DNA of 26,605 nt from Anaerolineales bacterium (lineage in GTDB: Bacteria; Chloroflexota; Anaerolineae; Anaerolineales; UBA6663), in the NCBI GenBank assembly GCA_038252885.1, contig JBBRZY010000001.1:1-26605 (forward strand), written 5' to 3'. Each line of letters opens with the position of its first letter. The stretch's first letter is position 1. Under the pieces are notes generated by a model, which was given only the letters and a program-made list of their open reading frames with translations, searched no databases and was not told the origin of the DNA. The translations under genes were made by a program, and so were the position numbers. Below are positions 4,752 to 22,170 of this stretch, one piece after another.

Positions 4752-4757
4752 AATGCT

Positions 4758-4883: not shown

Positions 4884-5149
4884 CTACTGATAGACGTCCG
4901 GCCGGCGATCATTGAACACGGGGATGCGCTGACGCACTTCATCCACTTTCGACAAGTCAATGTCGGCGGTGAGCAGGGCTGCGGTGCTGCCGCCCTCGAC
5001 CACGGCCTCGCCCCAGGGGTCGATGAGGGCCGAGCCGCCGCCGAAGCGTTCGCCTTGGCTTTCGCCGACGCGGTTGACGCCGGCGACGAACATCTGGTTC
5101 TCGATGGCGCGGGCGCGCAGGAGGGTGTGCCAGTGGGCGGCGCGGCGGG
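4884..5149 (-). pseudogene. duplicated 3' fragment of the nitrilase-family gene
   Basis: Gap-free 266-bp match to 6020-6285; lacks the catalytic E/K/C-encoding part. Confidence 0.9.
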
Positions 5150-5350: not shown

Positions 5351-5791
5351 TTAGGAGAGTTCCTCACTAAGCCCGACGATGAGGCCCTCTGGGCCGCGGA
5401 CGTAGGCGAGGCGATACATGGCCTCGTATTGGACCACTTCGCCGACCAGTTCGGCGCCGTGGGCCAGCAGACGCGCGACGAGGTCGTGGAGGTCGTCGAC
5501 GGCGAACATGAGGCGGCGCATTCCGAGTTCGTTGACCGGAGCGTTCTGGGGCCCAGTTCTGATCGCTGCTGGCGTGTGAAACTTGTCTAGTTCGATCCGA
5601 CCGTGGCCGTCTGGAGTGCGCAGCAGCACGAGGGTAGCGCGGACGTTCTGAAGGCCAATGAGACGATCTACGGAGGGGCCCTCGACGGTGGTCTCGCCTT
5701 CTAACTCGAGTCCGAGATCGAGAAAGAAGGCCTTCGCGGCTTCGAGGTCGTCGACGACGATGAGGATGTTGTCTAAGCGCTGGATGGTCAT
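5351..5791 (-). CDS. VOC / glyoxalase family protein, 146 aa
   Basis: RLDNILIVVDDLEAAKAFF.DLGL, GRIELDKFHTP, MFAVDDL, RLAYVRGPEGLIVGLSEEL; no SD, TGcTAAAAT 6 nt upstream suggests a leaderless mRNA. Confidence 0.88.
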   Translation of the reverse strand: MTIQRLDNILIVVDDLEAAKAFFLDLGLELEGETTVEGPSVDRLIGLQNVRATLVLLRTPDGHGRIELDKFHTPAAIRTGPQNAPVNELGMRRLMFAVDDLHDLVARLLAHGAELVGEVVQYEAMYRLAYVRGPEGLIVGLSEELS

Positions 5792-6019: not shown

Positions 6020-6802
6020 CTATGGGTATATGTCTGGGCGGCGGTCCTCAAAGACGGGGATGCGCTGGCGGACCTCATCCACTTTTGCCAAATCAATCTC
6101 GGCGGTGAGCAGGGCTGCGGTGCTGTCGCCCTCGACCACGGCCTCGCCCCAGGGGTCGATGAGGGCCGAGCCGCCGCCGAAGAGTTCGCCTTGGCTTTCG
6201 CCGACGCGGTTGACGCCGGCGACGAACATCTGGTTCTCGATGGCGCGGGCGCGCAGGAGGGTGTGCCAGTGGGCGGCGCGGCGGGCGGGCCACTCGGCGG
6301 GGAGCAGGACGAGGCGCGCGCCGGCCAGGGCGTAGTGGCGGAACAACTCGGGGAAGCGCAGGTCGTAGCAGATGCTCAGGCCGGTGAGGCCCCACGCGGC
6401 CTCGACCAACTCCAGGCGCTCGCCGGGGGCCAGCCACTTGTCCTCATCCATCAGTCGGAAGAGGTGGGTCTTGCGGTAGGTGGCGCTGAGCAAACCGGCG
6501 GCATCGAACAGCGCCAGGGCGTTGTAGGCGCGGCCGTGGCGCGCCTCGAGCACGGAGCCGGCCAGGGCAATGCGGTGCTCACGCGCCAGCGCGGCCAGGC
6601 GGGCGAACAAGCCCTCACCCGGTGGGCTGGCGTGGCGCGGCCAGTTTTCGAGGTCGTAGCCGGTCGACCACAGCTCGGGGAAGATCACCAGCGCCGACCC
6701 GCGCCGCGCGGCCTCGGCCGTCCAGGCGGCTACGCGCTCGAAGTTGGCTTCCACGTCGCCCAGCTTTACATCCATTTGGCCCAGCGAAATGTTTAGCGGC
6801 AT
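6020..6802 (-). CDS. carbon-nitrogen hydrolase (nitrilase superfamily, Nit1/YafV-like amidase), 260 aa
   Basis: Catalytic triad motifs FPELW, YRKTHLF, ICYDLRFPE; SD GGAG before ATG 6802 (ORF-track start 7183 overlaps the SDR). Confidence 0.92.
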   Translation of the reverse strand: MPLNISLGQMDVKLGDVEANFERVAAWTAEAARRGSALVIFPELWSTGYDLENWPRHASPPGEGLFARLAALAREHRIALAGSVLEARHGRAYNALALFDAAGLLSATYRKTHLFRLMDEDKWLAPGERLELVEAAWGLTGLSICYDLRFPELFRHYALAGARLVLLPAEWPARRAAHWHTLLRARAIENQMFVAGVNRVGESQGELFGGGSALIDPWGEAVVEGDSTAALLTAEIDLAKVDEVRQRIPVFEDRRPDIYP

Positions 6803-6849
6803 AGCGGCTCCATCCCTTGTCAATCTAATTTGGTCGCCAAAAGCAACCG

Positions 6850-7701
6850 CTACATTCGGTTGCCGCCGCCCACGCGAATGACCTGGCCGGTGATCCAGCG
6901 GGCCTGGTGCGAGGCCAGGAAGACGGCCACGTCGGCGATGTCGTCCGGCTGGCCGACGCGGCCCAGCGGCGAGGCGGCCGCGATCACTGCGTCTAGCTCG
7001 GGGGTGATCCAATCGGTTTGGATGGGGCCGGGCGAGATGACATTGACGGTAATGCCATAGCGGCCCAACTCGTAGGCGGCGGTGCGACTGTACGACTCGA
7101 GCGCGGCCTTGCTGGCGGCATAGCTGGCTTCGGACGGGAAGACGTCGGCGCCATCGGTGCTCAGGTTGAGAATGCGGCCCCACTGGGCGTGGCGCGCCGC
7201 GTGCCGCCGCGCAAACTCGGCCATGAGCAGGGCCACGGCGCGCGTGTTGACGGCGAAATGCGGGTCAATGGTTTCAGGCGAGAGCGTGACCGCGCTGGGC
7301 GGCCAAACCGCAGGGCCGGCGGGCGGCGGCGGATCGGGGCGCACGGTGTCGGCCTGCCAATGGGCGGCGTTATTAATCAGAATTTCCACCGGGCCCAGGC
7401 GGGCTTCGGCCTCGTCGAATAGGGCAGGCAGATTGGCCGGGTCGGCCAGGTCGGCTTCCCAGGCGACGGCCCGGCCGCCGCGGGCGTGAATGGCGGCCAG
7501 CACCGCCTCGGCCCCGCCGGCATGGTCGGCCTGGTAGGCGGCGCCGGCCCCGTGGGTGAGCGACGCGGGCAAGCGCCAGAAGTGAAGCAGCACGGCGCAG
7601 CCCTGAGCGGCGAGGGCTTGCGCACAGGCCGCGCCAATGCCGTGGGGGTTGTTCGCGCCGGTGACGACGGCCACTTTTCCGGCTAACTGGGGGTTGAGCA
7701 T
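6850..7701 (-). CDS. SDR family oxidoreductase, ~283 aa
   Basis: VVTGANNPHGIG Rossmann motif, INNAA, YAASK, VNVISPGPIQT, WITGQVIRVGGG. Confidence 0.9.
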   Translation of the reverse strand: MLNPQLAGKVAVVTGANNPHGIGAACAQALAAQGCAVLLHFWRLPASLTHGAGAAYQADHAGGAEAVLAAIHARGGRAVAWEADLADPANLPALFDEAEARLGPVEILINNAAHWQADTVRPDPPPPAGPAVWPPSAVTLSPETIDPHFAVNTRAVALLMAEFARRHAARHAQWGRILNLSTDGADVFPSEASYAASKAALESYSRTAAYELGRYGITVNVISPGPIQTDWITPELDAVIAAASPLGRVGQPDDIADVAVFLASHQARWITGQVIRVGGGNRM

Positions 7702-7708
7702 GAGACGG

Positions 7709-8314
7709 TCAGCACTCCACTCCAACTGCACTTAGCGCGGCGCGCACGTCGAGGCCAGGCGTGTAGTGAATGGCCTGCCACCCGGCGGCGCGCGCGCCCT
7801 CGACGTTGTGCAGGAAGTCGTCTACGAACACGGCCTCGGCTGGCTGCACGCCCAGGCGGGCGACGGCCAGGGCGTACAGGCGCGCGTCGGGCTTAGCCAA
7901 GCGCTCCTCGGACGAGATGATGAAGGCGTCGAAGACGTGGCCGGCGCTGAACAGTTCGGTGAATAGCGCGCGGCCGTCGGGCCAGGCGTTGCTGAGGATG
8001 GCGGTTTGGTAGCGCGGGCGCAGGCTTTGGATCAGCGCGACCAGTTTGGCGTCGAGGCGGTCGCCGCTCCAGAAGTCCTTTTGCAGCTCGGCCAGGGCGG
8101 CCGGCTCAAGCTGGAGCGTGCGGCCGACGTGCGCCCACACGTCGGCCACGGTGGCCTGTCCGGCAGTGGCGCGGCGGGCGGTGTCTGAGTCGAACACCAG
8201 CTTGCTCAGGCCGTGCGGGGCGAGGCCCAGGCGCGCCTCTAAGCGCTGGCGCGGGCCCTGGTCTTCGGTGCGCAGCAGCACACCGCCGAAGTCGAACAGC
8301 ACGGCTTTGATCAT
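7709..8314 (-). CDS. HAD-superfamily hydrolase (YihX-like), 201 aa
   Basis: MIKAVLFDFGGVL motif I, ILSNA, KPD, AVFVDDFLHNVEGA; ATGA overlap with the upstream GNAT. Confidence 0.9.
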   Translation of the reverse strand: MIKAVLFDFGGVLLRTEDQGPRQRLEARLGLAPHGLSKLVFDSDTARRATAGQATVADVWAHVGRTLQLEPAALAELQKDFWSGDRLDAKLVALIQSLRPRYQTAILSNAWPDGRALFTELFSAGHVFDAFIISSEERLAKPDARLYALAVARLGVQPAEAVFVDDFLHNVEGARAAGWQAIHYTPGLDVRAALSAVGVEC

Positions 8315-9291
8315 GGCAGGTCTTTCCCGAAGGCGATGGTGGTGCGGAAGGTGACGAAGCCCAGACGCTCGTACAGGCCAAGCGCGCCGCTGGGGTTCTC
8401 GGCATCCACGCCCAGGGTGGCAAAGTCTAGACCCTCGGCTTTGAAAGCGCGGAACGACTGGGCCAGCAGAAAGGCGGCCAGCCCGCGCTTGCGCCAGGGG
8501 CGGCGCGTGCCGAGCGAGCCGACCCAGCCGGTGGTGTAGCCCAGGCGCGCGTTCTCGTCGGGGTCGACGCGGTTGAGGCTGAAGGCCGCGATCTGCGCGC
8601 CGTCGTGGACGACCCACGTCAGGTCGGGCCGGAAGGCGGTGTGGCCGATGATGAACTTGTGACAATCCACCACGGAAATTTCCTCGTGCTGCCAGTGGTC
8701 GGTGAAGGCTTCGTTGTCGGCCTGGCGCAGCACCTCATCGAAGGCGAGTTGGTAGGGGGTGAGCGTTAGCCCGGCCGGCAGCGCCAGGTCGGGGATGGGC
8801 TGGCTAAGGTCGCGGCGCATGCGAAAGAAGTGGCGCACGGGCGTGAAACCCAGGCGGGTGTAAGCGCCGATGCGCGCGGCCAGCGCGGCGTTGGTGCGGC
8901 CCCGCACGGCGCGCGGTCCGCTGAAGCCGGTGGGGGCGGCGATCTCGGCCTGGCGGGCGCGGGCGCGGGTCTCGGCCCAGGTGAGCAGCGCCTCGGGCAG
9001 GCCGCCGTCGCGGTGGGCGGGATGCACGTCGTCATCAATGTGCGTGCGGAGGGCGTCGGTCGGGGCGGGGTTGGTGTAGAGGCGCGCATAGGCGGCGACT
9101 GTGCCGTCGGGCGCGAGGGCGAGCTGCGTCTCGGTCGGGGCCGGCGACCATTCGTCCTCAAACTCGCGCTGGAGGTCGGCCAAGGAGGGGAAGGTGGCGT
9201 CGCCGTCGGCCAGGCCGATGGCGACGAAAAGGGCGTGAATGGCGGGCAGGTCGGCGTAAGTGGCGGCGCGCCAGGTGTAGTCGGTCAGCAT
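8311..9291 (-). CDS. tandem-GNAT N-acetyltransferase, 326 aa
   Basis: LGTRRPWRKRGLAAFLL acetyl-CoA motif, LGVDAENPSGALGLYERLGF; degenerate N-terminal GNAT. Confidence 0.88.
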   Translation of the reverse strand: MLTDYTWRAATYADLPAIHALFVAIGLADGDATFPSLADLQREFEDEWSPAPTETQLALAPDGTVAAYARLYTNPAPTDALRTHIDDDVHPAHRDGGLPEALLTWAETRARARQAEIAAPTGFSGPRAVRGRTNAALAARIGAYTRLGFTPVRHFFRMRRDLSQPIPDLALPAGLTLTPYQLAFDEVLRQADNEAFTDHWQHEEISVVDCHKFIIGHTAFRPDLTWVVHDGAQIAAFSLNRVDPDENARLGYTTGWVGSLGTRRPWRKRGLAAFLLAQSFRAFKAEGLDFATLGVDAENPSGALGLYERLGFVTFRTTIAFGKDLP

Positions 9292-9333
9292 AGTGTCCTC
9301 AGCGTTGGGGGCCGGAGGCCGGCCCGCATGGGT

Positions 9334-10308
9334 TTAGGTCAGGTCGAGCGTGTACTCGGTGCTGCCGTGGTAGGCGACAAAGCCCAGGCGCTCGTATAGG
9401 CGGCGCGCCCCAACAGGGTCGGCGGCCAGGGCTTCGAGCGTGGCGTACTCTAGCCCGGCGGCGCGGAAGGCGGCCAGCGAGGCCGAGAGCAGGTGGGCGG
9501 CTAACCCCTGCCGCCGCCACGGCGCGCGCGTGCCCAGCGTGTGAATCCAGCCGGTGGAGTAGCCCAGGTGCGCTTTCTCATCTTCATGGACGCGGTTGAT
9601 GCTGTAGGCCGCGAGCTCGGGGCCGGCGAAGATGACGAAGGTGAGGTCGGGCCGGGCGGCTGAATTGTCGAGATAGTAAATCTGCCAGTCGGCGGGCGAG
9701 ATTTGGTCTTGCAGCGGGTCTTCGGCAAACACCTCGTTCTGGGCCACGCGCAGCGGCTCGCTGAAGGCGGGTGCGTAGGCGCGCAGGGTGAAGCCAGGCG
9801 GCAGAGGATAGTTGGGCAGCGGGTCGGTCAGCGGCCGGCGCATGCGCACCAACGCGAAACTGGGCTGAAAGCCGTGGCGCTGATAGGCGGCCACGCGCGC
9901 GGTCAGGGCGTCGTTGAGGTGCAAGCACAGTGAGCGCGAACTGGCAGCGGTGACGGGGGCCAGGCGGGCGCGGCCGCGTTCGACCAGCCAGGTGAGCAGC
10001 GGTTCTTCCAGGCCGGCCCCGCGATGGGCCGGATGCACCGTGTCGCTGAGGGTGGCGCGGGCCGGGCCGCCGGCCGCGGGCGCGGGGTCGGCGACGACGC
10101 GGCCAAAGGCGGCCACGCTGCCATCGGGCGCGAGGGCCACGCGGGTGTCGGTGGGCGGTGGACACCAGTCATCTTCAAACTGGCGCTGTAGGTCGGCCAG
10201 CGGCGGCACGATAGGGTCGCCATCGGCCAGGGCGGCGGCGGTTTTGAGGGCATGAATGCTGGGCAGATCGGCGGTGGTGGCGGCGCGCCAGGTGTAGGTG
10301 GGGGGCAT
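9334..10308 (-). CDS. tandem-GNAT N-acetyltransferase, 324 aa (close paralog of 8311-9291)
   Basis: VHPAHRGAGL and LGTRAPWRRQGLAAHLL motifs; N-terminus YTWRAAT.ADLP.IHAL shared with its neighbour. Confidence 0.88.
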   Translation of the reverse strand: MPPTYTWRAATTADLPSIHALKTAAALADGDPIVPPLADLQRQFEDDWCPPPTDTRVALAPDGSVAAFGRVVADPAPAAGGPARATLSDTVHPAHRGAGLEEPLLTWLVERGRARLAPVTAASSRSLCLHLNDALTARVAAYQRHGFQPSFALVRMRRPLTDPLPNYPLPPGFTLRAYAPAFSEPLRVAQNEVFAEDPLQDQISPADWQIYYLDNSAARPDLTFVIFAGPELAAYSINRVHEDEKAHLGYSTGWIHTLGTRAPWRRQGLAAHLLSASLAAFRAAGLEYATLEALAADPVGARRLYERLGFVAYHGSTEYTLDLT

Positions 10309-10311
10309 CGT

Positions 10312-10416
10312 TTAGTCCTTGAGGCGGCGATAGCGGGAAGTGTGCTTGACCGGGTGAGCGCCCAGGCCAGGGCACAGGCGCAGCGCGGCGAACATGGGTG
10401 CAAAGTCGGCGGACAC
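10312..10416 (-). CDS. putative 34-aa small ORF MSADFAPMFAALRLCPGLGAHPVKHTSRYRRLKD
   Basis: GTG start with strong SD GAAAGGGGG 6 nt upstream; stop 3 nt before the next GNAT ATG. Confidence 0.45.
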   Translation of the reverse strand: MSADFAPMFAALRLCPGLGAHPVKHTSRYRRLKD

Positions 10417-10463
10417 GGCAGGCCCCCTTTCAGGTGAGGCAGGCGAATGCGGCTCGAGTGCGG

Positions 10464-10502
10464 CTATATAAGTGACTCAGCCGTGAAGGAGGTGCGCCTC
10501 AT
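10464..10502 (-). CDS. putative 12-aa mini-ORF MRRTSFTAESLI
   Basis: ATG overlaps the stop of the Eis-like gene (ATGA); no independent SD. Confidence 0.25.
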   Translation of the reverse strand: MRRTSFTAESLI

Positions 10503-11851
10503 GTCAGGCTCCAGACGTTGCTGGCCTGCTTGGGGAACAAGGCGCCGAGCAACACGCGGGTGGCGTCGCCGTTGTAGCTGCAGTCGGCGTAGGCGTGCCG
10601 CAGCTCGTCGAGCGAGCGGTAGCCGAACAGCAATTGCAAGAAGGTCAGGTTGGGGAAGGCCGCGTCGCCGTTCTCGCCGACGGCGGCCTGCCAGGGCGCG
10701 ATGGTGGTCAGGCGGCCGGCGGTCAGCCCCAGGCGCAGCCCGCCGTGATAGAAGTTGAGCTTAAGCTCGCCGGTGTGCCCGACGGCGGCCGAGCGCGCTA
10801 ACTGCGCCTCCAGCGCGGGCGCAATGCGGCGCAGGAAAGCGGGCAGGTCGGGCACGCGCACGTACCAGGCGTAGGGCGGACGGACGACCGGCAGGTGATC
10901 GCGAAAGGCGTCGTAGACCGGGTGCTCGGCGCCCAGGGCGAAGATGAACCGATCGAGCGTCTTGTGCTTGGCGGCGGCCAGGGCGGCGCCGGTGGCCCAC
11001 AGATAGCGGATGACGCTGGGCGTGACGGCCAGCAGCGAGACGCCCGGTTTGACTTCGTAGCCCACGGCGGCCTGGCCGGCGCCCGGGCCGCCCTCGTTCA
11101 GCCGGGGAGGGTGCACCAAATAGCCGACCGGCTCGCCGGCGGCCGAGGTGATGACGCGCAGGTCAGAGCGCACCAAGCTGCCTTCGCTGCGGCCGTCGAG
11201 CTCGAAGCGCCAGGCGGGGGCCGACCGGATACAGGTGATGAGCTCGCGCCGGCCGACGGTGGCGGCGTAGACCTCTTCTAAGAAGGGGATATCGGCCGGC
11301 GTGGCGGGGCGCACGGGGTAGGGCTCGGCCTCACCCGCTGCCAGGGGCGGCAGGTGAGGCGCGGAGCCGCTGCGCCCGCCGCTGAGGGCCAGGCCCATCT
11401 CGTAGCCAAACTGGCGGTAGTAGAACGGGATGCCGCCGATGACCTGCACCAACTGGCCGCGCGCGGCGCTCCACTGGTGGACGGCGTCGAACTGGGCGCG
11501 CACCAGGCCGCGGCGGCGGAACTCGGGCAGGGTGCCCACGGCCTCCGGCTGCCCGACGCCGAATGGGATACCGGCGTAAGCCCACTCCTGGCTGATGAGG
11601 TTGAGCGAGGAAACGATGCGGCCGGTGGCGGTCTCTTCAACGACGGTGAAGTCGTCGGGGGCAAAGTTGGGGTGCGGCCGGGTGAGCAGGTCGCGGGTCC
11701 ACACGCCGACGAGCAGGTCGGGCGCGTCGTCGTGGCCGTGGATGCGGCTGTTGAAGTCGGCCAGCGCGTCGGCGTCGGCCGGGGTGGTGCGGCGCAGCAC
11801 CAGGCCGTCGCCCAGGTCGCGGATGATTTCGGCGGTGTGACTAACTGACAT
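10499..11851 (-). CDS. Eis-like GNAT acetyltransferase (GNAT plus C-terminal SCP2-like region), 450 aa
   Basis: VGTLPEFRRRGLVRAQF, GIPFYYRQFGYE; length and C-terminal LTFLQLLFGYRS region fit the Eis-like architecture. Confidence 0.8.
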   Translation of the reverse strand: MSVSHTAEIIRDLGDGLVLRRTTPADADALADFNSRIHGHDDAPDLLVGVWTRDLLTRPHPNFAPDDFTVVEETATGRIVSSLNLISQEWAYAGIPFGVGQPEAVGTLPEFRRRGLVRAQFDAVHQWSAARGQLVQVIGGIPFYYRQFGYEMGLALSGGRSGSAPHLPPLAAGEAEPYPVRPATPADIPFLEEVYAATVGRRELITCIRSAPAWRFELDGRSEGSLVRSDLRVITSAAGEPVGYLVHPPRLNEGGPGAGQAAVGYEVKPGVSLLAVTPSVIRYLWATGAALAAAKHKTLDRFIFALGAEHPVYDAFRDHLPVVRPPYAWYVRVPDLPAFLRRIAPALEAQLARSAAVGHTGELKLNFYHGGLRLGLTAGRLTTIAPWQAAVGENGDAAFPNLTFLQLLFGYRSLDELRHAYADCSYNGDATRVLLGALFPKQASNVWSLT

Positions 11852-11853
11852 GG

Positions 11854-12807
11854 TTACGGCTCTCCGAGAGTCGCGGAATGGCTGCCAGGGGCGACCCAAT
11901 CGACCCAGGCTTCGTTAAAGGCCGCGCCGTCAATCTGCGTGACGAGCTGCAAGGGCTTGCCGGCCGGGTCGGGCTGCTCAACCAGCCAGCCGCCGCGCAG
12001 TTCACACTTCAGCCGCTCGGTGCGCAGCTCGACGCCGGTGCGCCAGCCGAGGGCCAGGGCGACGGCCAGCGGGTCGTGCTGAAAGTTGAGGGTGTCATCC
12101 GGCAGGGCGGGGCAGGTGAGGCCGTAGCGCAGCTCGTTGCCCCAGTCGCGGGCGAAGACCTCGGCCTGGCGCGCGATCAGTTGGGCCACGGGGCCGGCGG
12201 CGCGCAGGCGCGGCAGGTGGGCACGGCGCAGGGCGGTTTCGACCGTCACGGTCAGCGGCACCAGCAGCGGCCGGCTGTGCGCCAGGACGAAGGCGGCCGA
12301 GGCGGCGTCGGCCTGCATGTTCCAATCCATGTCGTTGCCCCACTGCGGGAAGCCGGGGCGCGGGGCGTAGACGTAGCCGCCCATCAGGGTCAGGTTGGTG
12401 CGCGCAAGTAGGCGCGGCCGGCGCTCTTCGAGCAGGCGCAGGTTGGTGAATGGGCCGATGCCGATGAGCACGGCCCCGGCCGCCAGGCTGGCCTCGAGCA
12501 AGTCGAGCGCGGCGCCGACGGGGGTGGGGTAGGGCGTGACCGGCTCTGGCCAATAGTCGCGCTCTGGCGGGTAGCCCATGGGGGTGCGATAGACGCCGCT
12601 GGCGACGTCGGCCCCGGCGGCGACGGGGATGTCGGCGCGGCCGGCGAGACCCAGCACGTAGCGGGCGTAGCCGGCGCGGCGGCCGGCGTCGTCGGCCACG
12701 GTGGTCACGCCCACCAGGTCGACATCGGGCCGAGCCAGCAGCAGCGCCAGCGCACACAGGTCGTCCAGGTCGCCGCCGAGGTCGGTGTCGAGATGTACTT
12801 TTAGCAT
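11854..12807 (-). CDS. inosine/uridine-preferring nucleoside hydrolase family, 317 aa
   Basis: DTDLGGDLDDLCAL Asp-rich Ca-binding motif, IGPFTNL, MGG, DWNMQAD, HDPLA. Confidence 0.88.
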   Translation of the reverse strand: MLKVHLDTDLGGDLDDLCALALLLARPDVDLVGVTTVADDAGRRAGYARYVLGLAGRADIPVAAGADVASGVYRTPMGYPPERDYWPEPVTPYPTPVGAALDLLEASLAAGAVLIGIGPFTNLRLLEERRPRLLARTNLTLMGGYVYAPRPGFPQWGNDMDWNMQADAASAAFVLAHSRPLLVPLTVTVETALRRAHLPRLRAAGPVAQLIARQAEVFARDWGNELRYGLTCPALPDDTLNFQHDPLAVALALGWRTGVELRTERLKCELRGGWLVEQPDPAGKPLQLVTQIDGAAFNEAWVDWVAPGSHSATLGEP

Positions 12808-12860
12808 TCAGCCCCTACGCTCGTCCGTCTGGATTGGCTGTCTTGGCCTGGGCTCTGCCC

Positions 12861-14648
<1,788 letters not shown>

Positions 14649-14668
14649 GTCAACTTTCGCAACAACAA

Positions 14669-15715
14669 TTAGTGAGCTTCGAGCGCGGTGGTCGCCAGGT
14701 CGGCGCCGGCGCGCAGTTCTCTTTCCCAGACCTGATAAGTATAGTTCGGGTCGGAGCGCATGCCGGCCTTTTCGTAGAGGCGGGTGGCCCCGGTGAGGCT
14801 GCCGGCATCCACGCCCAGGCCCACGCGGCGGCGGCCGCGAGCGTAGAGCTTATTGAATGAGTCGTGCAGCAGCGCCAGCGCCAGACCGCGCCGCCGCCAC
14901 GCGCGCCGCACGCCGAGCGAGAAGATCCAGCCCATGGCCGGGTCTTCGGGCAGTTCCATGCGCGCGAACGAGGTGCCTATGATCTCACCCTTCGCGACGG
15001 CCAGCGACCACAGGCTGGGGTCGAAGCTGGGGTTGCTGGACCAGTTGTGCCGCCAACCCTGCAGGTCTTCCTCGAACGGGCGCGCGACGTGGCCCCAGTG
15101 ATCGTCAAAGGCGGCGCGCACGGTGTGCACGAGGGCTTCATCGTCCTGGCCGAGCACAAAGGTGCGACCACTAACGCCCTCTGGCCAGATGGGCGCGGGC
15201 GGTGGCGGGGCGTCGGCCAGATCAATGACCATGCGCCAGGCGGTGCGCACGTGGGCGTGGCCGAAGCCAGCCAGCAGGGCGTGGGTGGCGGTGTCGCGGC
15301 TGTTGTACCAGCCGGTGAGCACCACGCGCGTGCCGGCGGGGGCCAGGGCCACGGCTTGCTGCGCGCGCGCCTCTGACCAGGCCAGCAGGTAGGTGCCCAG
15401 CCCGCGGCCGGTGTGGGCCGGGTGCACGCGCCCCCACTGCTCGGGCTGCACGTGCGGCGCGGCGTCCCAGGTGTTGACAAAGCCGGCTAGGGCGCCGTCG
15501 GGCGCGAGCAGCAGCAGGCTATCGGTCGCCAGGTTTATCTCGGGCGACTGCCAGTCGCGCTGGGTGTCGGCCAGGGAGTGTTGATCGACGCCCAGCAGCG
15601 CCTGCGAGCTGGCGTTGAACAGGGCGGTGGCGGCGGCGGCGTCGGTGAGCTGCGCCGGGCGCGCGGTGTAGCCGGCCGGCAAAGCAGCGGCGGGCGCGAT
15701 GGTGTCAGTTTGCAT
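14669..15715 (-). CDS. tandem-GNAT N-acetyltransferase, 348 aa
   Basis: VHPAHTGRGLG and LGVRRAWRRRGLALALL, LGVDAGSLTGATRLYEKAGM; SD GAGGA before ATG 15715. Confidence 0.88.
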   Translation of the reverse strand: MQTDTIAPAAALPAGYTARPAQLTDAAAATALFNASSQALLGVDQHSLADTQRDWQSPEINLATDSLLLLAPDGALAGFVNTWDAAPHVQPEQWGRVHPAHTGRGLGTYLLAWSEARAQQAVALAPAGTRVVLTGWYNSRDTATHALLAGFGHAHVRTAWRMVIDLADAPPPPAPIWPEGVSGRTFVLGQDDEALVHTVRAAFDDHWGHVARPFEEDLQGWRHNWSSNPSFDPSLWSLAVAKGEIIGTSFARMELPEDPAMGWIFSLGVRRAWRRRGLALALLHDSFNKLYARGRRRVGLGVDAGSLTGATRLYEKAGMRSDPNYTYQVWERELRAGADLATTALEAH

Positions 15716-15772
15716 CAAGATTATCCTCACGGCGACCCGGGGGCCGCGGCACGTGCCAGTTAAGCATAGCGC

Positions 15773-16768
15773 TTATAGCGGTTTGCGCAGCGCCAGGCTA
15801 TGTTGAAAGGTCTTAAAGCCCACGCTTTCGTACAGGCCCAGCGCGCCGGTGGGGTTTTCGGCGTCGACGCCCAGGGCCACGTCGGTGAGGCCGCGCGCCC
15901 GCAGCGCGTGCAGGCTGTTAAGCAGCAGCGCTCGGCCCAGCCCGCGCCGGCGATAGGGGCGGCGCACGCTCAGGTCTTCGACCCAGCCGCGCTGGTGGCC
16001 GTGCTCGGAATTCTCGGCGGCGGGGATCATATTCATCGAAACGCCGGCGACTTCGTTGGTGACGGTATCCCAGGCTACCTGCCACAGATCGGGATCGGTG
16101 TCGGGGCTGTCCATCAGGCGCAGAAACTGCGCGTCGTCGGCTTCGCTGTTGCCCCAGTGGTCGCGGAAGGCTTCTTCGCTGGCCTGCCAGATGGTGTGCA
16201 GCAGGGCGCGGTCATGCCGATCGACCGGGCGCAGTTCGAGGCCGAGCGGCAGGGGGGCAGGCGGCAGGGCGTCGAGGCCAGTATGCAGCATCTCATAGAA
16301 ATGCCGGACGGGCACGTAGCCGCGCCGCTCGAACAGCGCTACTTTGCCGACGCGCGTGTCGGCGGTGAAGGACTGAAAGGCGCGCGGGGCTTCGGCGGGG
16401 TGTAAAGCGGCCACGGCGCGCAGGCGCGCCTCGCCGCGCTCGACCAGCGTGGCGCCCAGGCCCTGGCGGCGAAAGTCGGGGTCGACATAGCCGGCCAGGT
16501 TATAGACATAGGTGCCAGTGCCCTCGAGCCGCCAGGCGGTGTATTGATAGCCGGCGAGGCGGCCGCCGACTTCGGCCAGCAGGATATCTTCCTGCGGGTC
16601 AGTGTTCACGAGGTGGCGGAACCAAGCGGTCAGGCTTTCGACGGTCGGGCGCTCGTCTACCTGATCGGCCTGGTTGCAGCGCTGAGCGACAGCGGCCAGG
16701 GCGGGCAGGTCGGCCTCGCCGGCGATGGGGCGGATGACAACGTCAGTGACTAAGGTTGAGGCGGTCAT
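15773..16768 (-). CDS. tandem-GNAT N-acetyltransferase, 331 aa
   Basis: VDPDFRRQGLG and VRRPYRRRGLGRALL, LGVDAENPTGALGLYESVGF. Confidence 0.88.
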   Translation of the reverse strand: MTASTLVTDVVIRPIAGEADLPALAAVAQRCNQADQVDERPTVESLTAWFRHLVNTDPQEDILLAEVGGRLAGYQYTAWRLEGTGTYVYNLAGYVDPDFRRQGLGATLVERGEARLRAVAALHPAEAPRAFQSFTADTRVGKVALFERRGYVPVRHFYEMLHTGLDALPPAPLPLGLELRPVDRHDRALLHTIWQASEEAFRDHWGNSEADDAQFLRLMDSPDTDPDLWQVAWDTVTNEVAGVSMNMIPAAENSEHGHQRGWVEDLSVRRPYRRRGLGRALLLNSLHALRARGLTDVALGVDAENPTGALGLYESVGFKTFQHSLALRKPL

Positions 16769-17793
16769 ATTTCACTCGGGATTGGTTTACGGTAGGTGGC
16801 GCTGCGATGCACCGGGCGGAAGCCCATGGCTTCGTACACGCGCAGCGCGCCGGTCAGGTTTTCGGTATCCACGCCCAGGGCGGCCTCGGTCATGCCGCGC
16901 GCTTTAAGCTCGCGCAAGTTCTCAGCGATGAGGGCGCGGGCCACGCCCTGCCGGCGCCACGGCCGGCGCACGGTGATGGTTTCGGTATAGCCGCGGCGCC
17001 GATTGAACTTCTCGTTCTCGGCGGGGACGATGTAGCCCAGCACCGTGCCCACCACCTCGTTACGGGCGATGTCCCAGGCGACTTTCCAAATATCGCGCTG
17101 GAACTCCTGCTCATTGCCCACCCAGCGGGCATAGTCTTCAGCTGACTGTTCCTGTGCGCCCCAATGGTCTTGAAAGGCCTCGACTAGTTCGTTCCAAATG
17201 GCCTGATTGTGCTCGGGCAGCGCCGGGCGCAGCTCCACCCCGGCCGGCAGACGCAGATCGGGAATGTTCTCTAAATCTGGGCGGACCATCTGGTAGCCGT
17301 AGCGCACGGGCGTGTAGCCGGCGCGTTCCAGCAGGGCGGTCTTGGCGGTTTCAAGTTCGGACGACTCGGCCTGCCACATGGCCTGGGCCGCCGGCGGGCG
17401 CGGGTGGTTCTGCTCGGCGGCGATGGCGAGCGCGCGCGCCTCGAGCCAGGCCAGCAGGGCGCGGCCCAGACCCTGGCGGCGCACCTCTGGCCGCACATGC
17501 ACGGCAATGCGGTAGAGATAGGTTGGGCCGCTGCTCTCCAATTCCCACGAGGCGCGGCCGTAGGCGACCAGCCCAGATGGGCCCTCGACCAGCAGCATGT
17601 CGCGGGTCGGGTCGCAGTTGGTCAGGTGGGCGTAGAAATACTGCATCATCTCCAGCGTGACAGTGCTCTCGCGGTTATTGGCAGTCTCGTCGGCCGCCAA
17701 TACGTCTGCCACGGCGGGCAGGTCTTCCGCGCCACGGTAATGGCGAACGGTGAAGCCGGCGACAGTTGGCAGGGCAAGGGCTGGGGCGGTCAT
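16765..17793 (-). CDS. tandem-GNAT N-acetyltransferase, 342 aa
   Basis: VRPEVRRQGLGRALL and VRRPWRRQGVARALI, LGVDTENLTGALRVYEAMGF; ATGA overlaps on both sides. Confidence 0.88.
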   Translation of the reverse strand: MTAPALALPTVAGFTVRHYRGAEDLPAVADVLAADETANNRESTVTLEMMQYFYAHLTNCDPTRDMLLVEGPSGLVAYGRASWELESSGPTYLYRIAVHVRPEVRRQGLGRALLAWLEARALAIAAEQNHPRPPAAQAMWQAESSELETAKTALLERAGYTPVRYGYQMVRPDLENIPDLRLPAGVELRPALPEHNQAIWNELVEAFQDHWGAQEQSAEDYARWVGNEQEFQRDIWKVAWDIARNEVVGTVLGYIVPAENEKFNRRRGYTETITVRRPWRRQGVARALIAENLRELKARGMTEAALGVDTENLTGALRVYEAMGFRPVHRSATYRKPIPSEI

Positions 17794-18827
17794 GGGGCAC
17801 TCGCTTCACTCGGGAAGTTCTTGCGGTAGACGGCTTCGCGCTTCACCGGGCGGAAGCCCATGCTTTCATAGACGCCCAGCGCGCCGGTGGGGTTTTCGGT
17901 GTCGACGCCCAGGGCGGCTTCGGTCATGCCGCGCGCCTGGAGCTCGCGCAGGTTGGCGGCCATGAGGGCGCGGGCCACGCCCTGCTTGCGGTACGGCCGG
18001 CGCACGCAGATGTTCTCGGTCCAGCCGCGCAGGCGGTGGAACTGGGTGTTCTGCTCGGCGATGATGTAGCCTAGCACCATGCCGGCGACCTCGTTGGTGG
18101 CGGTGTCCCAGGCGACTTTCCAGATGGCGGGCTGGAACTCGCGCGTGTCACTCAGCCAACGCTGGTAGTCTTCGAGCGTGCGCTCGGTCTCGCCCCAGTG
18201 ATCGCGGAAGGCCTCGATGTTGGCATCCCAAATGGCTTGGTAGTGCTCGGGCTGCGCCGGACGCAGCTCTAGCCCGGCGGGTAGGCGCAGGTCGGGGATG
18301 TCATCCAAGTTTGGGCGGACCATCTCGTAGAAGTAACGCACGGGGGTGTAGCCGGCGCGCGCGAGCAGCGCGAGGTGGGCGCGTGAGCTCTCGTTGGCGA
18401 AGGACTGCCAGTAGGCCTGGGCGACGGGCGGGCGCGGGTGGCCCAGCTCGCCGGCGACGGCCAGAGCGCGGGCTTCGAGCCAGGCCAGCAGTGCGCGGCC
18501 CAGGCCCTGCCGGCGCACCTCTGGTTTGACAAACCCGACGATCAGGTACTGGTAGGCCTCGACGCCGTCTTCTTTGACCCAGAAGGTGCGGCCATAGGCG
18601 ACCAGGCCGGCCGGGCCCTCGACCAGCAGCACGTCGCGGTTGGGGTCGCAGTTGGTCAGGTGGCGATAGTGGTTGAGCATGGTCTCCGGCGTATCGGCGT
18701 CTTCCTGACCGTCGGCGGCTTTGCTGGCGCGAATGACGTCGAGCATGGCGGGCTGGTCGGCCTCGCCGCGGTAGGGGCGAAAGGTGTAACCGGCCAGGGC
18801 CGGCAGTTCAGGCGTAAGGGTGCTCAT
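17790..18827 (-). CDS. tandem-GNAT N-acetyltransferase, 345 aa (close paralog of 16765-17793)
   Basis: Shared HLTNCDP.RD.LLVEGP.GLVAYGR and VRRQGLGRALLAWLEARALA; VRRPYRKQGVARAL, LGVDTENPTGALGVYESMGF. Confidence 0.88.
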   Translation of the reverse strand: MSTLTPELPALAGYTFRPYRGEADQPAMLDVIRASKAADGQEDADTPETMLNHYRHLTNCDPNRDVLLVEGPAGLVAYGRTFWVKEDGVEAYQYLIVGFVKPEVRRQGLGRALLAWLEARALAVAGELGHPRPPVAQAYWQSFANESSRAHLALLARAGYTPVRYFYEMVRPNLDDIPDLRLPAGLELRPAQPEHYQAIWDANIEAFRDHWGETERTLEDYQRWLSDTREFQPAIWKVAWDTATNEVAGMVLGYIIAEQNTQFHRLRGWTENICVRRPYRKQGVARALMAANLRELQARGMTEAALGVDTENPTGALGVYESMGFRPVKREAVYRKNFPSEASAP

Positions 18828-18876
18828 GGCATCTCCGTAATCACTAAACAGTTCGAGGCTTTGTTAGTCGTGGGCG

Positions 18877-19452
18877 TCAGGCCGGTTGATCGGCTTGCTC
18901 CCAGTCGGCGCGCAAGAGGCCCATGCTGATGATGTGCTCGCGCCGGCCGTCGCGGCCATCCCATTCGCGCTGGGTGCCCTCGTGCACGAAGCCGCACTTC
19001 TCGTAGGAGCGGATGGCGCGGGCGTTGTCGGCGTTGGCCTCCAGGCTGATGCGTTCCAGGTTCAGCTCGTGAAAGCCGAAGCGCAGGGCCAGGCGCATGG
19101 CGTCGGTGCCATAGCCTTTGCTTAAGTCGGCCTGCTCGCCGAGGCCGATGCCGACGAAGGCTTCGGCGTTGGGCCAACTGATCACCCACAGGCCAACGTA
19201 GCCGATGAACTGGCCGGTGGTCAGCAGGTGAATGCCGAAGGGGAAGCTGCGGCCGTGCTCGGCGCGCTGCTCCATGGCGGCCAGCACGTGGGCGGCGCTC
19301 TCAGGGCGCACCGCGTCGCCGTCGGCCCAGCGGCGGAGCTCGCTGTTGGTCGTCCAGCGGGCGAAGGCGGCGGCGTCACGCTGCGGGTCTTGCGCGGCGA
19401 GCCGGACGAGTGTGCCAGCGTATAGATCAGGGTAACGCAGTTGGGTGGGCAT
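18877..19452 (-). CDS. RimJ/RimL-type GNAT N-acetyltransferase, 191 aa
   Basis: GIGLGE...KGYGTDAMRLALRFGFHELNLERISL..N.RAIRSYEKCGFVHEG. Confidence 0.9.
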   Translation of the reverse strand: MPTQLRYPDLYAGTLVRLAAQDPQRDAAAFARWTTNSELRRWADGDAVRPESAAHVLAAMEQRAEHGRSFPFGIHLLTTGQFIGYVGLWVISWPNAEAFVGIGLGEQADLSKGYGTDAMRLALRFGFHELNLERISLEANADNARAIRSYEKCGFVHEGTQREWDGRDGRREHIISMGLLRADWEQADQPA

Positions 19453-19455
19453 GGG

Positions 19456-20052
19456 CTAAAGCGCTCCTGCGCCGGTCTGCCACTCGCTGCGCAGCAGACC
19501 CATGAGCAGCAGATCGTGGCGCTGGTTGTCGCGCCGCAGCCGCTCGCGCTGGCGGCCCTCGTGCACGAAGCCCAGCTTTTCGTAGGTGTGGATGGCGCGC
19601 GGGTTGTAGCCGAAGACTGAGAGGGTGACCCGGAAGAGGTTGAGGTCGGCAAACGCGAAGCGCAGCAGCAGGCGCATGGCCTCGCTGCCGTAGCCCTGGT
19701 TCCAGTCGGACCGCTGGCCGAGGGCGATGCCGATCCAGGCGTCGCGGTGGGCCCAGGCTGGGATCATCAGGTCGAGCGTGCCCAGCAGCCGGTCATCGGC
19801 CAGGGCGCGGATGCCGAAGAAGTAACCCGCGGGGCCGCGTTCGTCAAACAGGTGCTCGTCCTCCAGGTCCTTACGCAGCTCGGCCAGCGACCAATGGCGG
19901 GCGACGTTGGTTTGCAGCAGGCGCAGAAACTCGCTGTCCTGCGACCAGGCGGCCATGGGCGCGAGGTCGCGGTCCACGTCGAGGGCGGCCAGGCGTAAAC
20001 GCGCTCCTTGTAGCGAGTTCGCCGGAGTGTTGGGGACAGAGGAGGCGGTCAT
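19456..20052 (-). CDS. RimJ/RimL-type GNAT N-acetyltransferase, 198 aa
   Basis: IALGQRSDWNQGYGSEAMRLLLRFAFADLNLFRVTLSVFGYNPRAIHTYEKLGFVHEG; ATG 20052 overlaps the upstream stop. Confidence 0.9.
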   Translation of the reverse strand: MTASSVPNTPANSLQGARLRLAALDVDRDLAPMAAWSQDSEFLRLLQTNVARHWSLAELRKDLEDEHLFDERGPAGYFFGIRALADDRLLGTLDLMIPAWAHRDAWIGIALGQRSDWNQGYGSEAMRLLLRFAFADLNLFRVTLSVFGYNPRAIHTYEKLGFVHEGRQRERLRRDNQRHDLLLMGLLRSEWQTGAGAL

Positions 20053-20666
20053 GGGGCCTCCGCTGTGAGGGCGCGGCGCGCCGCCCATTCGGCGCGCAGC
20101 AGGCCGTACATGAGAAGGTCCCAACGCTGGCCGTCGCGGGCCACGGCCTGGCGGCGGCGCACTTCGAGCGTGAAGGCGTTGCGCTCGCAGAAGCGGATGG
20201 CGCCGAGGTTATAGCCGCCGAGGTAGCCGGCCACGCGGTGCATACCCAGCTCGTCGAAGGTGTAGCGCAAAAGCAGGTCGAGCGCTTCTTGGCCGTAGCC
20301 CTGGCCACGGTCGGCTGGGTCGCCGATGCCTAGGCTGAGGACAGCGGCGCGGTGCATCCAGTCGAGGTTGTGTACGCGCGCAAAGCCAAGCAGCCGGTCG
20401 GGTGTAGGCGCGGTTGCGGCAGCGGCCTCCGTTGCGGGCGAGGCCGGGGCGCGCAGGCGCAGCGCGAAGTGAAAGGTCTTCTCGGCTTCCTTGGCGAGCT
20501 GTTCGTATTTCTTTTTCACCTGGGCCGGTGAGAGTGGGTGGGCCGGGGCGGTGTCGATCAGCCGCAGCCACTGGCCGGCGTGGGTCCAGGCGCTTTCGAT
20601 GGGCGCGTCGGGCTCGGGGTCGACGGCGGTGAGACGGACGCGCGGGCCTTCAAAGAGTTGGGTCAT
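20049..20666 (-). CDS. RimJ/RimL-type GNAT N-acetyltransferase, 205 aa
   Basis: LGIGDPADRGQGYGQEALDLLLRYTFDELGMHRV; SD GAGGAG; ATGA overlap with the ABC ATPase stop. Confidence 0.88.
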   Translation of the reverse strand: MTQLFEGPRVRLTAVDPEPDAPIESAWTHAGQWLRLIDTAPAHPLSPAQVKKKYEQLAKEAEKTFHFALRLRAPASPATEAAAATAPTPDRLLGFARVHNLDWMHRAAVLSLGIGDPADRGQGYGQEALDLLLRYTFDELGMHRVAGYLGGYNLGAIRFCERNAFTLEVRRRQAVARDGQRWDLLMYGLLRAEWAARRALTAEAP

Positions 20667-21487
20667 ACGGGCTCCTCGGCGGCCGGCGCGGGCCGGCGCG
20701 TGAGTGTGAGAAAGACGTCTTCGAGCGTGGCGCACGGCCCAGGGGCCAGGCGCTGCTTGAGGGCGGCGGGCGTGTCGAGCGCCACCAGCCGGCCGCTGTC
20801 GACGACGGCCACGCGGTCGCACAGGCGCTCGGCTTCGGCCATGTCGTGCGTGGTCAGCAGCACGGTGGTGGCGTGCGTGGCGCGCAGCTCTTGGATGAAG
20901 TCTTGCACGTCGCGGCGGGCGCGCGGGTCGAGGCCGGTGGTGGGCTCATCGAGCAGCAGCACGCTCGGCTCGGCCAAAAACGCGCGGGCGATGGTGACCT
21001 TTTGCTGTGTGCCACGGCTGAGGGCTTCCATGGGCCGGTAGAGCGCGGAGGCGGGCATGCCCAGCCGTTGCAGCAGTTCGACGACGCGGCGGCGCGTTTC
21101 GGCCGGGCGGCTGGCGTATTGCCGCGCGCCATATAGCAAGTTCTCGATCGGCGAGAGCTTCTTAAAGAAGGCGGCGTCGGGCGCGACCGGGCCGAAGCGG
21201 CCAAAGGCGGCCGGCGCGGCGGGGTCGTGGCCGAAGAGCGCCACCTGCCCGGCGTCGGGCGCGAGCTGCAAGGCCAGCAGGCGCACCAGGGTGGTCTTGC
21301 CGCTGCCATTGGGGCCGACGAGGCCGAAGATCTCGCCGCGGTGCACGTCGAAGGTGAGGTGATCGACGGCGACGGTGGCGCGGGCCGGCCGCAGGGTGCC
21401 GCCGTTGGGAACGCGGGTGAGCGGGCTATGAGGTTGGGGGGCAAAAGTTTTCACCGCGTTGTCGACGCGGATGGCCAGGTCTGACAT
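20663..21487 (-). CDS. ABC transporter ATP-binding protein (DrrA-like exporter type), 274 aa
   Basis: Walker A GPNGSGKT, signature LSRGTQQK, Walker B LLLDEPT, H-loop LTTHD; SD GGGGAGG before ATG 21487. Confidence 0.9.
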   Translation of the reverse strand: MSDLAIRVDNAVKTFAPQPHSPLTRVPNGGTLRPARATVAVDHLTFDVHRGEIFGLVGPNGSGKTTLVRLLALQLAPDAGQVALFGHDPAAPAAFGRFGPVAPDAAFFKKLSPIENLLYGARQYASRPAETRRRVVELLQRLGMPASALYRPMEALSRGTQQKVTIARAFLAEPSVLLLDEPTTGLDPRARRDVQDFIQELRATHATTVLLTTHDMAEAERLCDRVAVVDSGRLVALDTPAALKQRLAPGPCATLEDVFLTLTRRPAPAAEEPV

Positions 21488-21518: not shown

Positions 21519-21560
21519 AAAAAAAGGGCCGTGAGCGAAGGAACTTCGCGCTCACGGCCC
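21519..21560 (-). terminator. leader terminator T2
   Basis: GGGCCGUGAG(CG)CGAAG-uuc-CUUCGCUCACGGCCC, 15 bp with a 2-nt bulge, followed by U7. Confidence 0.85.
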
Positions 21561-21578: not shown

Positions 21579-21619
21579 AAAAAAAAGGACCGTGGGCGCT
21601 ATTGCGGCGCCCACGGCCC
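21579..21619 (-). terminator. leader terminator T1
   Basis: 13-bp stem GGGCCGUGGGCGC / GCGCCCACGGUCC, 7-nt loop, followed by U8. Confidence 0.85.
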
Positions 21620-21644: not shown

Positions 21645-21740
21645 TTACTCTGGGCAACAGGCGCAATCCGACATAGAAAATCCGCCAACGGGGGCGCTGG
21701 TGGCGGCGATGAGAAAATCGGGCTTCTTGAATGTCACCAT
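21645..21740 (-). CDS. putative 31-aa leader peptide MVTFKKPDFLIAATSAPVGGFSMSDCACCPE
   Basis: Only ATG-initiated reading frame found between the promoter and T1; SD is weak or distant (AAGAAAGG 16 nt upstream); inner ATG gives MSDCACCPE. Confidence 0.55.
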   Translation of the reverse strand: MVTFKKPDFLIAATSAPVGGFSMSDCACCPE

Positions 21741-21775
21741 ATGTCGTGAGCCTGTGCCTTTCTTAGAGTGGGTGC

Positions 21776-21805
21776 AGTCTACCATAGGGCGGCGGGCGAA
21801 GTCAA
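21776..21805 (-). promoter_or_regulatory. sigma70-type promoter of the GNAT operon
   Basis: TTGACT, 18-bp spacer ending TG-n, TAGACT; A/T-rich tract just upstream. Confidence 0.7.
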
Positions 21806-21860: not shown

Positions 21861-22063
21861 CAGGGCAATCGCATGTTAGTTCCGTAGGTTGAGAAATACT
21901 CAAAAGCTGCTCCGAAATTGGACCTGGCTGTGACCACCCGAGACGCTGCGCGTCACCCCCCACAGAAGGAGCGCTGAGATGAGCGACCTGACGGGGGGCT
22001 TCGAAATGACAGTTAAACGGGGCTGGTCAGTCAACGCCGTGCAAATTAGATGCAATTGCCCTG
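21861..22063. mobile_element. 203-bp MITE / internally deleted IS, ISAs1-like ends
   Basis: 14-bp terminal IRs CAGGGCAATCGCAT / ATGCAATTGCCCTG (13/14) flanked by a 10-bp direct repeat CCTTTACGCC (21851-21860, 22064-22073); no transposase. Confidence 0.85.
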
Positions 22064-22065
22064 CC

Positions 22066-22095
22066 TTTACGCCCGGCGCGATTTATAGGTATCAT
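22066..22095 (+). promoter_or_regulatory. putative promoter of the rightward operon
   Basis: TTTACG, 18 bp, TATCAT; the -35 lies inside the duplicated target site. Confidence 0.45.
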
Positions 22096-22170
22096 GTTCG
22101 GCATGAATGGCATGACTGCTTCGCCCTTGAGTCTCCCGAGTGCTCAGCCTGTGGCGCTCCCGGTGCATCT

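Follow-up and report, generated by a model that had tools for sequence, protein, structure and literature searches.

The WhiB7 (WblC) regulon of mycobacteria and streptomycetes offers the closest described parallel to the locus reported here. In Mycobacterium abscessus, WhiB7 is induced by ribosome-targeting drugs, and its top direct targets include two ABC-F genes, eis2, MAB_4324c, RimL-type and other GNAT acetyltransferase genes, APH, HflX, erm41 and transporters (PMC10727445). The whiB7 gene is itself under the control of an upstream open reading frame (ORF) and a rho-independent terminator, and responds both when translation is under stress and when amino acids are scarce (PMC10274678). 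ARE ABC-F genes are likewise under attenuator control by a translated leader (PMC12421871), and translated leader attenuation governs bmrCD of Bacillus subtilis (PMC4191407). Here we describe a block of 16 genes, ten of which code for acetyltransferases, in a 26,605-nucleotide (nt) stretch of DNA (hereafter the window) from an Anaerolineales bacterium (assembly GCA_038252885.1, contig JBBRZY010000001.1, positions 1 to 26,605). On balance, it is probable that these genes form one long operon, with transcription controlled by a ribosome-mediated, leader-peptide attenuator, and that it would be induced by translation stress to acetylate, and protect against, ribosome-targeting, amine-bearing toxins.

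As in the WhiB7 regulon, a leader ORF and an intrinsic terminator would sense slowed translation, and the effectors are of the same types: ABC-Fs, Eis-type and tandem-repeat GNATs, RimL-type GNATs, exporters and, in relatives, APH. The two systems differ in that the RNA switch would here act directly on the effector operon rather than on a transcription factor, and in that the effectors are contiguous instead of dispersed. No WhiB domain was found in the window genome (5.35 Mb in 966 contigs, 95% complete). The locus also belongs to another phylum, Chloroflexota, and its leader is unrelated in sequence and carries two coupled terminators. The leaders of bmrB-bmrCD and of the ARE ABC-F genes vmlR, vgaA, msrD, lmrC and are5sc would share with it a ribosome-mediated transcription attenuation that governs a multidrug ABC system or an ABC-F and responds to ribosome-targeting drugs. 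However, those leaders control one or two genes, whereas a single leader here fronts 16, mostly acetyltransferase genes, and belongs to a separate, order-wide family with twin terminators; no match to Rfam 15 was found in the window at gathering thresholds. The operon may thus be viewed as a functional counterpart of the actinobacterial WhiB7 regulon in which the RNA switch is direct and no transcription factor intervenes. Judging from sequence and from structural models, close counterparts of the WhiB7 effector set appear to be united in one unit under the same kind of sensor, without WhiB. A preliminary description, made from the DNA sequence, had stated that no characterised operon with this composition was known. 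This holds as far as our literature search goes, which found nothing relevant on the cluster or the leader in Chloroflexota, but a dispersed functional counterpart does exist in WhiB7 (PMC10727445).

The 16 genes (g1 to g16) are co-directional on the minus strand and run from the ATG at 21487 to the stop at 6020, as established by ORF listing, start-codon inspection and Pfam/NCBIfam scans; gene starts were picked from upstream Shine-Dalgarno-like sequences and domain boundaries. Five pairs share ATGA overlaps (g1/g2, g2/g3, g5/g6, g6/g7 and g13/g14) and the remaining intergenic gaps measure 2-57 nt, except for a single one of 190 nt (10309-10498, minus strand) between g11 and g12. The G+C content of the window is about 70%. 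The ten GNAT genes comprise three of the Acetyltransf_3 (RimJ/RimL) type, six tandem and one of Eis fold. The gene list given in the preliminary description (16 genes, their overlaps, gaps and families) agrees gene by gene with the Pfam and NCBIfam calls.

The region upstream of g1, also read on the minus strand, has the organization of an attenuator. A promoter scan identified, at 21776-21805, the promoter-like site TTGACT-18-TAGACT, whose -10 element is preceded by TG. It is followed by a 5' block (21741-21764) containing the Shine-Dalgarno-like sequence AAGAAAGG and segment 1 (CAGGCTCACGACAT), and then by a 31-codon leader ORF (21645-21740) encoding the peptide MVTFKKPDFLIAATSAPVGGFSMSDCACCPE. 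Within the ORF lies a conserved box, or segment 2 (CTATGTCGGATTGCGCCTGTTGCC, 21653-21676), which is homologous to CCTTGTCGTATTGCGCCTG in relatives and has two alternative pairing partners, segment 1 and the 5' arm of the first of two intrinsic terminators. This terminator, T1 (21579-21619), has a 13-bp stem with 11 G-C pairs and a U8 tract. The second, T2 (21519-21560), has a 5' arm that is a near-repeat of the T1 5' arm and can pair with the T1 3' arm; the ribosome-binding site of g1 lies after T2. Most leaders also contain, inside the ORF and immediately upstream of the box, a small G+C-rich hairpin of the CCGGCGG...CGCCGG type (21685-21700, minus strand, in the window), at which RNA polymerase may pause.

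This organization is conserved. In 13 loci from two families of relatives (f1 and f4), g1 orthologues are preceded by the leader ORF and twin terminators, and the ORF start, frame and stop position are all retained; in other families the ORF stops inside the box. In an alignment of 33 leaders the GAAAGGAG Shine-Dalgarno sequence, the GGCGCA element that represents segment 1 immediately ahead of the ATG, and the ATG itself are conserved, T1 is found in all leaders of the set and T2 in most. When 401 genomes of the order were searched for a 17-nt version of the box, with at most one mismatch allowed, 72 gave a match, and the reversed control pattern turned up in far fewer. The codons TTG TCG TAT TGC GCC are invariant across genera even though the neighbouring protein is only about 55% identical. 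Since no synonymous change has accumulated in them, selection on the leader seems to act on the RNA rather than on the peptide.

Among the alternative pairings that an attenuator requires, the segment 1:box duplex was compared with shuffles sequence by sequence. It reached z < -2 in 21 of 26 leaders, and compensatory variants exchange AGGCGCAAU:AUUGCGCCU for AGACGCAC:GUGCGUCU; the pair of the window itself is CGACAUA:UAUGUCG. The T1 stem covaries across families in the 33-leader alignment, GCCGUGG/CCACGGC being replaced by GCCACGG/CCGUGGC. Pairing of the box with the T1 5' arm amounts to -22 kcal/mol in the window, a value matched by 0.7% of shuffles, and is also strong in close relatives. The T1 3' arm:T2 5' arm duplex gave z < -1.5 in 11 of 25 leaders, with values down to about -6. 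Taken together, these features give the leader the predicted layout of a trp-like attenuator that is ribosome-mediated and includes a relay between terminators.

Such an architecture suggests the following sequence of events. RNA polymerase would start near 21770 and transcribe the 31-codon leader ORF. A lead ribosome moving briskly to the stop would cover the box, allowing T1 and then T2 to form, and transcription would terminate before g1. If no ribosome were loaded, segment 1, which lies between the Shine-Dalgarno sequence and the AUG, would pair with the box and T1 would form as well. A ribosome slowed in the first 20 or so codons, by a translation inhibitor or by scarcity of charged tRNA, would instead leave the box free to pair with the T1 5' arm; the released T1 3' arm would pair with the T2 5' arm and both terminators would be bypassed. 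Read-through would then provide proteins that jointly weaken the effect of amine-bearing toxins directed at the ribosome. The compounds would be modified by ten N-acetyltransferases, which represent at least three architectures and several old clades; the ABC-F would work on the ribosome, the exporter-type ABC ATPase would assist in export, and accessory hydrolases and a reductase would make up the rest of the effector set. The sensing window is more likely to be the variable stretch formed by these first 20 or so codons, which would report a general slowing of translation. The inducibility proposed in the preliminary description is plausible in this light, resting as it does on the conserved leader-ORF attenuator.

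The leader is not restricted to loci like the present one. Other copies precede g1-type ABC ATPases, three Acetyltransf_3 GNATs with tandem GNATs and no ATPase, an ATPase with three Acetyltransf_3 GNATs and a HAD protein, a fused multidrug resistance (MDR)-type ABC exporter, tandem GNATs, and stand-alone ABC-Fs. Two leader-fronted ABC-Fs of family f16 nest in the g9 orthologue clade, which excludes the paralogue of g9 that the window genome carries on contig C183 (96/99 support). It is tempting to speculate that the order-wide translation-sensing leader family constitutes a transcription-factor-free 'resistome regulon' and that the present operon is its largest effector module, with ten acetyltransferases of several ancient clades, each retained because it inactivates a different class of ribosome-targeting natural product and some resistance activities as yet undescribed; we regard this extension as possible and rate it below an even chance. 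Several genomes contain box copies at two or three further loci (G001:C34, G001:C64, G003:C26, G025:C94, G041:C9/C52 and G014; loci L116-L125). Most ORFs downstream of the second leader copies in G001, G003, G025 and G041 have no Pfam match, and ORF picks in such high-GC DNA may be wrong; one of these loci has an HtrA-like protease farther downstream. Some of the box matches (L120, L122, L123 and L124) may have arisen by chance within coding sequence.

That the block forms a single transcription unit, as was originally proposed, is plausible in view of its tight spacing. A scan for sigma-70-type promoters on the minus strand found no internal promoter-like site in the block, and a terminator scan found no strong internal terminator, only one weak terminator-like site within g11; signals that would split the block into unrelated units were thus not apparent. 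The 190-nt gap contains no terminator and no significant structure, its folding being no better than that of shuffles (z = +1.07). The leader is single-copy in the window genome, and g9, located 7 kb downstream of it, begins 20 nt after g8 and has no leader of its own here. Therefore, g9 would depend on read-through from the single leader, and all 16 genes would be co-transcribed as one unit. A gene of the VOC/glyoxalase/bleomycin-resistance family (5351-5791, minus strand) sits 229 nt downstream of g16. This gene lies between two directly repeated copies, each 266 nt long, of the 3' end of g16 (4884-5149 and 6020-6285, 92% identical) and was not found at the corresponding position in the relatives examined. 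It looks like a cassette inserted in the operon tail and is possibly co-transcribed with the operon.

The composition of the block is conserved well beyond the window genome. We searched 40 genomes of relatives with g5, retrieved the surrounding regions and compared them with the window proteins. These relatives belong to the class Anaerolineae of Chloroflexota (Anaerolineales bacterium, Litorilinea and Caldilineales metagenome-assembled genomes). Nearly all of them carry tandem-GNAT arrays on single contigs. The common gene order is ABC ATPase, two to three Acetyltransf_3 GNATs, tandem GNATs, Eis-like protein, ABC-F, tandem GNAT, HAD, in some cases SDR, and Nit. Seven other f1 genomes (G001, G003, G006, G007, G009, G013 and G020) retain most of this order; one genome of family f4 (G025) retains only its first part, from the ABC ATPase to the tandem GNATs. 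Protein identities between the window and these clusters range from 40 to 85%. In more distant Chloroflexota, the ABC-F is kept beside the GNATs only sometimes. The comparison of gene order and GNAT copy number across Chloroflexota proposed with the original description revealed, in these relatives, a conserved order and lineage-specific changes in copy number.

Some clusters contain additional genes. An ABC-2 permease gene follows the Acetyltransf_3 genes in three genera (G006; G007/G013/G020; G025). RtcB and a further acetyltransferase-like protein are encoded in the first two of these, and the clusters of G007, G013 and G020 add an APH-family phosphotransferase, an amine oxidase and an Ig/CAP protein. 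In the G013 cluster (L018, contig C30) the permease (2855-3682), APH (6719-7651), RtcB RNA ligase (7662-9116), acetyltransferase-like protein (9113-9967) and flavin amine oxidase (12824-14122) genes can be located individually. The acetyltransferase-like protein has no Pfam match and an ESM Atlas feature score of 0.98. In the same cluster the Acetyltransf_3 genes are placed between the exporter ATPase and permease genes.

Within the window genome, the acetyltransferases are strikingly concentrated. The whole genome contains 61 PF00583 domain matches, and an even spread would place about 0.2 GNAT genes in 15.5 kb, compared with the ten observed. A tblastn search of the assembly with the cluster proteins located all six tandem GNATs of the genome within the block, with no further copy elsewhere, and all close Acetyltransf_3 paralogues in the block except one on contig C559. 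A chance accumulation of genes can be dismissed, given the conserved core order and the confinement of the paralogues to the locus. The same two observations counter the view that its GNATs are scattered housekeeping orthologues, which the preliminary description had named among the outcomes that would overturn its proposal. As a whole, the idea that unrelated units or housekeeping GNATs are accidentally juxtaposed, or that the locus is a known anti-phage system, is very improbable and already largely refuted. The 190-nt internal gap and the variable gene content among relatives speak for it, but the order is conserved across genera, the paralogues do not stray from the locus, the gap has no significant structure, and PADLOC yields only generic ABC ATPase cross-matches.

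The six tandem-repeat GNATs are two-domain proteins of 324-348 amino acids, all encoded on the minus strand: g5 (17790-18827), g6 (16765-17793), g7 (15773-16768), g8 (14669-15715), g12 (9334-10308) and g13 (8311-9291). A maximum-likelihood tree of 36 tandem GNATs contains four old and well-supported clades, and the window proteins fall in three of them: g8 in clade B, g12 and g13 in clade C, and g5, g6 and g7 in clade D, where g7 belongs to the tG3 subclade and g5 and g6 are recent duplicates (65% identity). Clades B, C and D each have orthologues in other genera, and identity between clades is 27-35%. Different specificities would fit, because divergent paralogues have been retained for a long time. 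The 'library' of divergent acetyltransferases evoked in the preliminary description is consistent with this tree of old paralogue clades kept as cross-genus orthologues.

The AlphaFold model of g5 (predicted local distance difference test (pLDDT) score 94.7) was compared by Foldseek with the tandem GNAT MAB_4324 of M. abscessus (PDB 7q3a), giving a template modelling (TM) score of 0.87-0.90, a root-mean-square deviation of 2.2-2.4 A and 29% identity; a sequence search of g5 against 7q3a gave E 6e-32. MshD was the next fold match (TM 0.69/0.79). MAB_4324c and MshD, like the tandem GNATs described here, consist of two fused GNAT domains; this operon holds six such paralogues in three clades. A role of the tandem GNATs as MshD mycothiol synthases was considered and rejected: they score 47-69 bits with TIGR03448 against a cut-off of 163, and the sole MshC match in the genome is below its cut-off (257 bits against 485).

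The g11 gene (10499-11851, minus strand) encodes a predicted Eis-fold, three-domain acetyltransferase of 450 amino acids. Its model (pLDDT 92.4) matches full-length Eis2 of M. abscessus (6rft), Eis of M. tuberculosis and homologues (E 1e-19, TM 0.65/0.71), the match to Eis2 spanning about 450 aligned columns and comprising the GNAT, GNAT and SCP2-like domains. By sequence, only the N-terminal Acetyltransf_9 domain (PF13527), shared with Eis and Eis2, is recognized; no sequence match to any Eis in the PDB was obtained, identity to Eis/Eis2, which are aminoglycoside multi-acetyltransferases, is 14-19%, and g11 is part of a separate, extensive family that counts more than 5,600 relatives. The designation 'Eis-like' thus holds for the modelled fold.

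Two ABC proteins accompany the acetyltransferases. The g9 gene (12861-14648, minus strand) encodes a 595-residue ABC-F ATPase of the ribosomal-protection-like type (ABC_tran twice and ABC_tran_Xtn), with two ABC domains, the ABC-F linker domain and no membrane domain. It passes only NF000355, the model for ribosomal protection-like ABC-Fs, with 424 bits against a cut-off of 380, and is far below the cut-offs of all named ARE subfamilies (Msr, Vga, Lsa, Sal, OptrA and producer type). The genome also encodes a true EttA. The g1 gene (20663-21487, minus strand; 274 amino acids, ABC_tran) encodes a DrrA-like ATPase of the ABC-2 exporter type with intact motifs, which scores 205 bits with TIGR01188 against a cut-off of 312. 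No counterpart of the permease known from the clusters of relatives was found here, and g1 may be an orphan ATPase or its permease may be unassembled.

The remaining genes, all on the minus strand, encode a nucleoside hydrolase family protein (g10, 11854-12807; IU_nuc_hydro), a HAD-IA phosphatase-like protein (g14, 7709-8314), a short-chain dehydrogenase/reductase (SDR; g15, 6850-7701) and a carbon-nitrogen hydrolase resembling Nit/YafV-like amidases (g16, 6020-6802; CN_hydrolase). They are the basis of the strongest alternative, a starvation or metabolite-damage-control operon in which the leader would sense a shortage of charged tRNA, the GNATs would acetylate endogenous amines (for example amino acids, polyamines or aminoacyl compounds), and the HAD, Nit, nucleoside hydrolase and SDR proteins would clean damaged metabolites. 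A general leader ORF can indeed sense amino-acid starvation, and whiB7 senses alanine starvation (PMC10274678). In addition, g16 resembles YafV/deaminated-glutathione amidases and g14 house-cleaning HAD nucleotidases, both below cut-offs, g4 is weakly similar to SpeG, and HAD and Nit are conserved members of the cluster: g14 is retained in the clusters of relatives, and in G001, G003 and G009 the cluster ends with a g16 orthologue of 83-85% identity. However, the nucleoside hydrolase and SDR are variable members (g10 was not found in the relatives' clusters examined), the leader ORF has no conserved codon run for any one amino acid, and the conserved partners, namely ABC-F, exporter ATPase and permease, Eis-fold enzyme and APH in relatives, are typical of a drug response. 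We therefore consider this alternative unlikely. The house-cleaning and damage-control component of the preliminary description does not stand on firm ground either, as it rests on variable genes (nucleoside hydrolase, SDR) or on genes below equivalog cut-offs (HAD, Nit).

Somewhat less probable still is a remodelling of the ribosome or proteome, in which the GNATs would acetylate ribosomal or other proteins, or aminoacyl-tRNAs, under translation stress, with the ABC-F alongside on the ribosome. The three Acetyltransf_3 GNATs g2 (20049-20666), g3 (19456-20052) and g4 (18877-19452), all on the minus strand, do belong to the RimJ/RimL Pfam family, structure entries for Eis (3sxn, 6b0u) indicate that it acetylates proteins as well, tandem GNATs such as VipF target translation factors, and the clusters of relatives carry RtcB, an RNA repair ligase. 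However, g2-g4 reach only the broad family PF13302 and weakly resemble AAC(6'), SpeG and RimJ below cut-offs. They score 27 bits with the RimJ model against 190 and 20-33 bits with the AAC(6') models against 250-400, and the RimI and RimL equivalog models are also far from being reached. Ten paralogues with lineage-specific changes in copy number, and genes lying between exporter halves, fit small-molecule substrates better.

Finally, the least probable interpretation is that the small ORF is a cysteine-sensing leader, or a precursor of a ribosomally synthesized and post-translationally modified peptide (RiPP) on which the GNATs would act and which the ABC system would export. In its favour, the window peptide terminates in CACCPE, that of 12 relatives terminates in ..ALSYCACCP, and a preprint on mycobacteria appears to present polycysteine leader ORFs as Cys attenuators (bioRxiv 10.1101/834739). 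Both readings were rejected: the codons free of synonymous change indicate selection on RNA; the Cys codons lack conservation, many lineages having TAG in the box and hence an ORF that stops at ..ALS* with no Cys; a stall at the Cys codons would mask the antiterminator because they lie within that segment; and no RiPP maturase, protease or RRE domain is present in the cluster.

The operon interpretation, in which a leader attenuator gates an acetylate-and-protect response, must itself be weighed against several observations that do not favour it. In more distant families the box:T1 antiterminator is no better than shuffles, which makes it the weakest part of the RNA model. Three other ABC-Fs of the genome also pass only NF000355; the model is thus not specific for resistance, and passing it alone is no proof of such a role for g9. 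All GNATs of the block score below the cut-offs of the models for resistance and ribosomal-protein acetyltransferases, and MAB_4324c, the counterpart of the tandem GNATs, makes only a marginal or modest contribution to amikacin tolerance (PMC10727445). With the permease of relatives as query, no ABC-2 permease was found in the window or in the 95% complete genome. Promoter and terminator signals of Chloroflexota may escape the sigma-70 and terminator scans, and internal starts could lie hidden in the 190-nt gap or in the 229-nt gap that precedes the VOC gene. Lastly, a search for RNA sequencing runs brought up only the DNA metagenome of the source sediment.

Downstream of the operon lie an IS66-family transposase gene (789-2255, plus strand) and a gene for a CHAT-protease/TCAD2 protein (2377-3990, minus strand), adjacent to a stretch of lower G+C content (57% at 4001-5000). 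On the other side, divergent genes (21979-24475, plus strand) encode an NmrA-like NAD(P)-binding protein, a small AAA/kinase-like protein and an M20 peptidase/deacylase. The AAA-like gene also adjoins the cluster in G001 (74% identity), and the M20 deacylase, located beside an acetyltransferase operon, could provide a counter-activity.

The locus is noteworthy for an undescribed leader family, an unusually large set of probably co-regulated acetyltransferases and a convergence with actinobacterial intrinsic resistance. If our interpretation is correct, an abundant and poorly cultured phylum would possess an inducible intrinsic resistance converging on that of mycobacterial WhiB7, with the RNA sensor placed straight on a 15-kb operon. 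The leaders, with their twin coupled terminators and no match to Rfam 15 at gathering thresholds, would represent a tractable family. The substrates of ten divergent, co-regulated acetyltransferases could reveal antibiotic-modifying activities of the environment, and the same panel could help to clarify the role of the many unexplained GNATs of the WhiB7 regulon.

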